Source of the DNA: Escherichia coli
Lineage (GTDB): Bacteria > Pseudomonadota > Gammaproteobacteria > Enterobacterales > Enterobacteriaceae
Reading direction: 5' to 3' (one strand)
DNA: 64,000 nt
Assembly (NCBI RefSeq): GCF_003334335.1
Contig: NZ_QOWQ01000003.1
The stretch's first letter is position 1. The number at the start of each line of letters is the position of its first letter. Positions 22,395 through 23,399 of the stretch are shown here, in pieces. Under the pieces are notes generated by a model. It did not search any database. It had not been told where the DNA came from and saw only the letters and a list, made by a program, of their open reading frames with translations. A program made the translations under genes and the position numbers.

Positions 22395-22469
22395 CACTAC
22401 GCGCACGATGGTCAAGTCACCACGACTGTGCTATAAAATCAGTACGCAGTCACTAACGCGGCCAAAATT

Positions 22470-23399
22470 ATGCCGCGCCACGACCCCGTAGGCCGACTCA
22501 ACACTACCTTTCGCCAGATGGAACAAGAGCTGGCTATATTTGCCGCTCATCTTGAGCAACACAAGCTATTGGTTGCCCGCGTGTTCTCTTTGCCGGAGGT
22601 AAAAAAAGAGGATGAGCATAATCCGCTTAATCGTATTGAGGTAAAACAACATCTCGGCAACGACGCGCAGTCGCTGGCGTTGCGTCATTTCCGCCATTTA
22701 TTTATTCAACAACAGTCCGAAAATCGCAGCAGCAAGGCCGCTGTCCGTCTGCCTGGCGTGTTGTGTTACCAGGTCGATAACCTTTCGCAAGCAGCGTTGG
22801 TCAGTCATATTCAGCACATCAATAAACTCAAGACCACGTTCGAGCATATCGTCACGGTTGAATCAGAACTCCCCACCGCGGCACGTTTTGAATGGGTGCA
22901 TCGTCATTTGCCGGGGCTGATCACCCTTAATGCTTACCGCACGCTCACCGTTCTGCACGACCCCGCCACTTTACGCTTTGGTTGGGCTAATAAACATATC
23001 ATTAAGAATTTACATCGTGATGAAGTCCTGGCACAGCTGGAAAAAAGCCTGAAATCACCACGCAGTGTCGCACCGTGGACGCGCGAGGAGTGGCAAAGAA
23101 AACTGGAGCGAGAGTATCAGGATATCGCTGCCCTGCCACAGAACGCGAAGTTAAAAATCAAACGTCCGGTGAAGGTGCAGCCGATTGCCCGCGTCTGGTA
23201 CAAAGGAGATCAAAAACAAGTCCAACACGCCTGCCCTACACCACTGATTGCACTGATTAATCGGGATAATGGCGCGGGCGTGCCGGACGTTGGTGAGTTG
23301 TTAAATTACGATGCCGACAATGTGCAGCACCGTTATAAACCTCAGGCGCAGCCGCTTCGTTTGATCATTCCACGGCTGCACCTGTATGTTGCAGATTAA
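22470..23399 (+). CDS. tus: Replication terminus site-binding protein Tus, with an atypical N-terminus.
   Basis: 309 aa. Residues 9-309 match K-12 Tus as I recall it, but residues 1-8 read MPRHDPVG instead of MARYDLVD. Confidence 0.93.

Follow-up and report, generated by a model that had tools for sequence, protein, structure and literature searches.

A private cluster of substitutions across TerB and the start of tus in one Escherichia coli record, probably a sequencing or assembly artefact

The window analysed here is a stretch of 64,000 nucleotides of Escherichia coli contig NZ_QOWQ01000003.1. From 12252 to 64000, it is collinear with K-12 MG1655 (rstA-rstB-tus-fumC ... nemR) and carries about ten scattered SNPs besides the block of substitutions that is the subject of this work. 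The left part of the window is occupied by an integrative island that interrupts tqsA; on this side of the junction, tqsA lacks its first 128 nt. The island and its main genes are located as follows:

1-12251 (junction at 12251/12252): integrative island inside tqsA
3358-4515, minus strand: HK97-type capsid gene of the island
6616-8013, minus strand: AAA_25/RepA-like helicase gene of the island
10847-12064, minus strand: integrase gene of the island

The island also encodes SSB, PerC, an S78 prohead protease, and a portal protein. This gene set resembles that of a capsid-forming phage-inducible chromosomal island or satellite, and the best match of the island among complete genomes is only about 97%. 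Two other features of the window were observed outside the tus region. The rsxC gene (ORF 45130-47256) lacks 96 bp (32 codons) relative to MG1655 and the strain VG48B2, the difference falling in its internal tandem-repeat region at about 46786-47210; this 708-aa RsxC variant is common, being found in at least 37 collection blocks and in many NCBI drafts. Scattered SNPs private to the clone or to the window, at 12451 (C>G), 45238 (G>A), 50807 (A>T), and 51996 (G>A), are ordinary and unclustered in comparison with the nearest relatives.

The tus gene is situated 75 bp downstream of rstB, the same position as in K-12. The region that concerns us contains the following features:

22434-22439, plus strand: inferred -10 hexamer (TAAAAT) of the tus promoter
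22437-22459, plus strand: position of TerB
22440-22486, plus strand: private block, 15 substitutions in 47 bp and no indels, delimited by comparison with MG1655 and with six contigs of the same lineage (L013 and L019-L023)
22458-22476, plus strand: new GC-rich stem (GCGGC/GCCGC) around the AUG in the predicted leader RNA, in the variant only
22470-23399, plus strand: tus coding sequence, 309 aa
22492, plus strand: A>G SNP of the lineage (Tus D8G), outside the block and 6 bp from its right end

The product of tus is homologous to Tus over its full length. We found that 305 of the 309 residues are identical to those of PDB 1ECR/2I06 (E = 3e-205), with residues 9-309 identical throughout, and PF05472 (Ter) is recorded on Tus orthologues. 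The four differences from K-12 are all located at the N-terminus, which reads MPRHDPVG in the record; A2P, Y4H, and L6P arise from the block, which also makes synonymous changes in the codons of R3 and D5, and D8G arises from the lineage SNP. A Tus with two extra N-terminal prolines (A2P and L6P), as described in the original prediction, is therefore what the record encodes. This exact protein is held as GenBank RCQ67637.1 and RefSeq WP_114494356.1, and also in UniRef100, all from a single contig of 218,100 bp. The sources of the variant are NCBI, UniRef, and nr only, whereas its D8G parent is also obtained from Logan read assemblies. A lookup of the exact variant in a gene-position index gave no entry, which is a gap of that index, since the protein collection has one. 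Because the variant Tus is a genuine GenBank deposit, the block was not planted, and editing in silico is excluded by the presence of the variant protein in GenBank, RefSeq, and UniRef.

The terB site of K-12 is located within the tus promoter (PMC8347550, PMC8707476), and Tus represses its own promoter via TerB as the operator (PMC8707476). The conserved core of Ter sites consists of position 6 plus positions 8-18 (..ATGTTGTAACT..) (PMC8347550). At the TerB position, the window reads AATCAGTACGCAGTCACTAACGC instead of the canonical AATAAGTATGTTGTAACTAAAGT, with seven mismatches at Ter positions 4, 9, 11, 12, 15, 21, and 23. Four of these (9, 11, 12, and 15) fall in core positions 8-18 and change GTATGTTGTAAC to GTACGCAGTCAC; the conserved core of G6 plus positions 8-18 is thus not retained, though G6 itself is kept. 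The Ter consensus AGNATGTTGTAACTAA has no match within three mismatches at the TerB position in the window. The position and orientation, about 10 bp 5' of the tus ATG and with the non-permissive face away from tus, are those of TerB by gapless alignment to MG1655 and to the clone-mate contig L013. The TerB sequence and placement given for K-12 in the original prediction proved right, as judged from the MG1655 alignment and from the identity of Tus residues 9-309 to 1ECR/2I06. The putative -10 hexamer, placed from the sequence together with published descriptions (PMC8347550, PMC8707476), overlaps TerB positions 1-3 and is unaltered. A sigma-70 consensus scan called the tus promoter in neither allele and is uninformative on promoter damage. 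Compared with the K-12 unit, in which the Tus-binding terminator overlaps the tus promoter, the record has the same spacing from rstB, the same flanks, inferred -10 hexamer, and G6, and the same Tus residues 9-309, but differs in 7 of the 23 Ter positions, in three bases of the spacer between TerB and the ATG, and in codons 2-6.

A gapless comparison of 22437-22492 with MG1655 (NZ_CP032667.1) gives exactly 16 mismatches and no indels (22440, 45, 47, 48, 51, 57, 59, 62, 63, 66, 73, 78, 79, 84, 86, and 92), which confirms the 16 reported substitutions at their sites, 13 of them creating a C. Outside these 16 sites, 16685-26457 shows no further difference from MG1655, and the flanks and Tus residues 9-309 are unchanged, as had been claimed, with respect to both MG1655 and 1ECR/2I06. 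The original prediction regarded the 16 substitutions in 53 bp as one event. This holds for 15 of them, in 47 bp, but not for 22492; the A>G change at that site is common to the clone-mate and the lineage, which have canonical TerB, so the anomaly consists of 15 substitutions in 47 bp and not of 16.

The substitutions of the block are strongly biased. On the plus strand, there are nine T>C, three A>C, one G>C, and two T>A changes, and the overall rate is 15 of 47 sites (about 32% per site). Sorted by the original base, 11 of 17 T (65%), 3 of 14 A, 1 of 11 G, and 0 of 5 C are altered, and the difference between T and non-T (11/17 vs 4/30) has a Fisher p of 7e-4. The new base is C at 13 of the 15 sites (p = 3e-5) and A at the remaining two. 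Read on the minus strand, 11 of 17 A are altered (nine A>G and two A>T), accompanied by three T>G and one C>G, and G is never altered. The GC content of the segment rises from 34% in the canonical sequence to 60% in the variant. The left end of the block falls in the 20-mer with the highest AT content in the region (25% GC), its Ter-site part begins at Ter position 4, and on the right it reaches 27 bp beyond TerB. Both the ATG and the tus reading frame are intact, with the three T's in ATTATG spared (p about 0.03); a change to C cannot make a stop codon. In the predicted leader RNA, the minimum free energy is -16.7 kcal/mol for the variant vs -10.5 kcal/mol for the clone-mate. An example of a variant-specific 31-mer is CAGTACGCAGTCACTAACGCGGCCAAAATTA, whose canonical counterpart is AAGTATGTTGTAACTAAAGTGGTTAATATTA.

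Such a block is far beyond chance. With the background of 3 SNPs in 34.4 kb outside the block that separates the clone from its nearest complete genome, VG48B2, the probability of at least 15 substitutions in 47 bp is about 1e-48. The block is the sole substitution cluster in roughly 62 kb of comparable window, the rest of which contains scattered ordinary SNPs only, and comparison of the right-hand part of the window with three relatives gives 4-7 scattered SNPs only.

We sought clone-mates of the record via a clone-specific product, the tqsA remnant starting at 12283 (ATG start), and four contigs carry this remnant; a lookup of truncated TqsA from a GTG start was empty. One of them, L013, a 25.6-kb contig present in three samples, comes from a Logan read-based assembly of SRR3824134. 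Aligned without gaps to 2283-23158 of the window, L013 is identical at 20,861 of 20,876 positions, a span that takes in ~10 kb of the island, for which complete genomes offer a best match of only 97%, and all 15 differences are located in 22440-22486. L013 reads AATAAGTATGTTGTAACTAAAGT and MARYDLVG. Hence the claim of the original prediction about TerB divides into two parts: at face value, the site in the record is unrecognisable, with four core changes and no consensus match, but a strain without functional TerB is not supported, as TerB is intact in the read-based assembly of the same clone.

Tus with D8G occurs on 16 contigs (NCBI drafts and Logan), some with the tqsA island and some lacking it; complete genomes of the same background do not have D8G. 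The five loci standing for these 16 contigs (L019-L023) have canonical TerB and show the same 15 differences from the window plus 0-4 scattered SNPs. The canonical TerB-tus unit of K-12 is thus kept in the clone-mates (L013 and L019-L023), and the assignment of D8G to the block is refuted, as all of them combine D8G with canonical TerB. Position 22492 is one of three clone-private SNPs, and the chance of the block lying 6 bp away from one is p about 0.006.

Among 5,426 complete E. coli genomes, none contains the block; over 351 bp, identity reaches 95.4% at best, corresponding to the 16 mismatches. Reference genomes carrying the same sequence, which had been named as the observation that would overturn the original prediction, are accordingly not found in this panel. 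Across 5,424 complete E. coli genomes, a 67-nt segment at this place has 90% or more identity to the clone-mate (at least 95% in 5,349 and 90-95% in 80), in comparison with 78% for the window. BLAST of the block against the complete E. coli genomes hits the tus locus only, at 76% identity. Neither the 185,579 species-representative genomes nor the JGI metagenome contigs contain an exact match to either half of the block, a search of the PLSDB plasmids gave nothing relevant, and neither the block halves nor SRR3824134 is matched in literature text. The block is found on one contig only, not in more than one independent assembly or read set. Its presence in no other public sequence bears out the view that it is not ordinary allelic drift.

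Natural lesions at the 5' end of tus, within the first 16 codons, were also observed in other assemblies. An IS10 end is located at about codon 9 in AP027748.1 (L004). UGED01000009.1 (L003) has a +1 frameshift in tus, small indels or a premature stop occur in three further loci of the same series (L005-L007), and an unrelated upstream junction is present in L010. TerB is intact wherever it is present in the assemblies with such lesions (L003-L007 and L010). A lookup of Tus from M17, a possible shifted start call, gave unrelated tus lesions only. These natural lesions affect the identical few codons, but each is a single ordinary event (insertion, indel, or nonsense change) with TerB intact, whereas the block consists of 15 substitutions that leave the frame open and destroy TerB.

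The block is private, is without a template anywhere searched, is strand-asymmetric, and is flanked by error-free sequence; we infer that it originated during sequencing or assembly. On balance, we consider it probable, with considerable reserve, that the block is a sequencing or assembly artefact private to one record and not an inherited allele. An artefact of this kind had been listed among the alternatives in the original prediction, and the evidence points there, as the same-clone contig L013 and the lineage are canonical. The E. coli DNA polymerases, SOS polymerases included, have error rates at or below about 1e-3. A rate of 32% per site, and of 65% at T, belongs to the range of failed base-calling or gap-filling and not to that of any E. 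coli DNA polymerase. The assembly, gap-closing, or consensus step of the submitter may have filled a short stretch from very poor base calls, and the AT-rich start of the block is a plausible site for a coverage dip or a gap closed from poor reads. The DNA of the clone would then most likely carry canonical TerB (AATAAGTATGTTGTAACTAAAGT) 10 bp 5' of a tus starting MARYDLVG, and Tus in the clone would bind TerB, repress its own promoter, and block clockwise forks as in K-12.

Two-colour Illumina chemistry over-calls the unlabelled base G (PMC8002175, PMC13218037), and a T>G excess is known on NovaSeq, with T>G at NT[TG] documented as a recurrent artefact (PMC13218037). The block shares with this over-calling the bias to one base on one strand (13 of 15 changes are to minus-strand G, and G is unaltered), a rate of tens of percent, and the confinement to a short patch in perfect sequence. 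However, the documented class is T>G at NT[TG], and minus-strand A>G dominates here, with 3 of the 15 changes in the documented class. Several further points count against an artefact. Low-signal errors normally do not survive into a consensus. The record is otherwise flawless over 20.8 kb, so that its coverage is not generally poor, and 15 substitutions with no indels and perfect flanks are not the usual pattern of read tails. The ATG and the frame survive, and a clone-private SNP lies 6 bp away. In addition, an artefact would have had to hit, by chance, the single famous cis element of the window, a target of about 70 bp in 52 kb; this coincidence with TerB is weakened by selection, since only changes at well-known sequences could have been noticed.

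Some specific origins were considered and rejected. Replacement of N or ambiguity codes by one fixed base is excluded by hit rates that differ with the original base (T 11/17 vs 4/30), and an alphabetical resolution of ambiguity codes does not fit A>C. Chemical or UV damage and a mutator background are excluded, since nothing else is altered in 20.8 kb in comparison with L013. Stepwise selection for loss of Tus binding is likewise excluded, as nothing else is altered and there are no intermediate alleles.

Among the explanations that take the block as real, one-step hypermutation at the Tus-TerB barrier survives best, although we regard it as unlikely. A single low-fidelity tract of ~47 nt would have run across the Tus footprint into tus in one isolate, with dCMP misinserted in the plus strand (the nascent leading strand of a clockwise fork arrested by TerB) or dGMP in the minus strand, and would have escaped mismatch repair. 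In a variant of this explanation, which appears doubtful to us, an arrested or fused fork at Tus-TerB would have been finished by a non-canonical activity. In favour of hypermutation, Pol I, ligase, RNase HI, and several helicases fail in vitro to close the gap of 15-24 nt that remains after fork fusion at Tus-terB (Jameson et al.); the tract, however, is longer than 15-24 nt and extends 27 bp beyond TerB. The start of the block at Ter position 4 corresponds to the leading-strand end of a fork arrested at the non-permissive face, but the GC skew of the plus strand at the locus is negative, which indicates that the locus is normally replicated from the permissive side. One incoming nucleotide would explain 13 of the 15 changes, with hit rates in the order presumed from mispair stability (C:A wobble, then C:T, then C:C). 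The required error of 30-65% per site is nevertheless unmatched, to our knowledge, by any E. coli polymerase. The survival of the start codon and frame is in keeping with hypermutation, the lineage SNP 6 bp away could mark a locally mutable spot, and the record is a real deposit in which the block was not planted. On the other side, the block is absent from the 16 D8G lineage contigs and from the 5,426 complete genomes, and MutS should readily recognise a heteroduplex containing 15 mismatches. In the termination literature consulted (PMC8347550 and PMC8707476 among it), recombination and over-replication at the terminus are reported; clustered point mutation at Ter was not found there or in Jameson et al.

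A laboratory origin of the allele, whether through doped-oligo recombineering, mutagenic synthesis, or targeted mutagenesis of TerB and the tus 5' region, is very improbable. The 47-nt core would fit a typical 90-mer recombineering oligo, the ATG is kept, and the edges are sharp. However, the design would be senseless, introducing two N-terminal prolines and destroying the operator while keeping the promoter, and the C-biased spectrum is unlike that of doped synthesis (p = 3e-5). The block halves are absent from the text of 8 million papers and from plasmid records. Furthermore, the lineage circulates naturally, with a wild island in tqsA, and is sampled in many independent NCBI and Logan runs, which makes the engineered allele envisaged in the original prediction unlikely.

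We give even less credence to adenine mutagenesis of the minus strand in the manner of a diversity-generating retroelement (DGR), in which an unfaithful cDNA would have replaced the segment. The resemblance lies in the density, with 65% of minus-strand A altered in apparently one event, and in the strand asymmetry (A 11/17 vs 4/30 for the other bases, Fisher p = 7e-4). Among natural enzymes, only the DGR reverse transcriptase bRT is known to reach ~52% misincorporation per site; this rate applies to adenines alone, with at most 1.6% at non-A sites (PMC7826257). In the block, by contrast, the changes are not confined to adenines: 11 are at minus-strand A, and 4 of 15 are at T or C, which amounts to 13% of the non-A sites. 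The spectrum also differs, as bRT gives A>T most and then A>G, whereas A>G dominates here and A>C is absent. No template repeat was found in the window or in E. coli genomes, where the only homologue of the segment is its own locus, and the genes called or annotated in the window include no reverse transcriptase. Nor does the block lie at the 3' end of a gene for a variable protein. The non-adenine changes bring this explanation close to refutation.

The least credible explanation is that a diverged homologue supplied the block by short-patch gene conversion or recombination, or that a template switch (quasi-palindrome) copied nearby sequence, although dense clusters of substitutions in bacteria usually have such an origin. 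The direct and inverted repeats near the block are chance 9-11-mers; 7 ten-mers of the block recur elsewhere in the window, vs 6.0 +/- 3.6 for random 15-substitution mutants; and a homologous TerB from any species with Tus would retain the GTTGTAAC core. No donor matching the new bases was found in the window, the 5,426 E. coli genomes, plasmids, 185,579 species representatives, or metagenomes, and we therefore reject gene conversion, including the localised event proposed in the original prediction, cross-species recombination, and template switching.

If the block is an artefact, as we favour, its consequences would be a matter of data hygiene only. WP_114494356.1 and a UniRef100 entry would exist solely through the block, and this genome would be counted as a TerB-less E. 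coli in any survey of Ter conservation. If the block is real, the four core changes should abolish Tus binding, judging from the conserved core (PMC8347550). One clockwise fork barrier would then be lost, and tus would be de-repressed, being without its operator and with its -10 hexamer intact. The leader would gain a predicted hairpin over the AUG, and Tus would carry A2P, Y4H, and L6P. Natural E. coli could then lose both TerB and tus autoregulation in one step. A real block would also bear on how replication is completed at Tus-ter, where an unreplicated gap remains in vitro, and it would provide the first natural case of kataegis-like, clustered point mutation at a replication fork barrier in bacteria.
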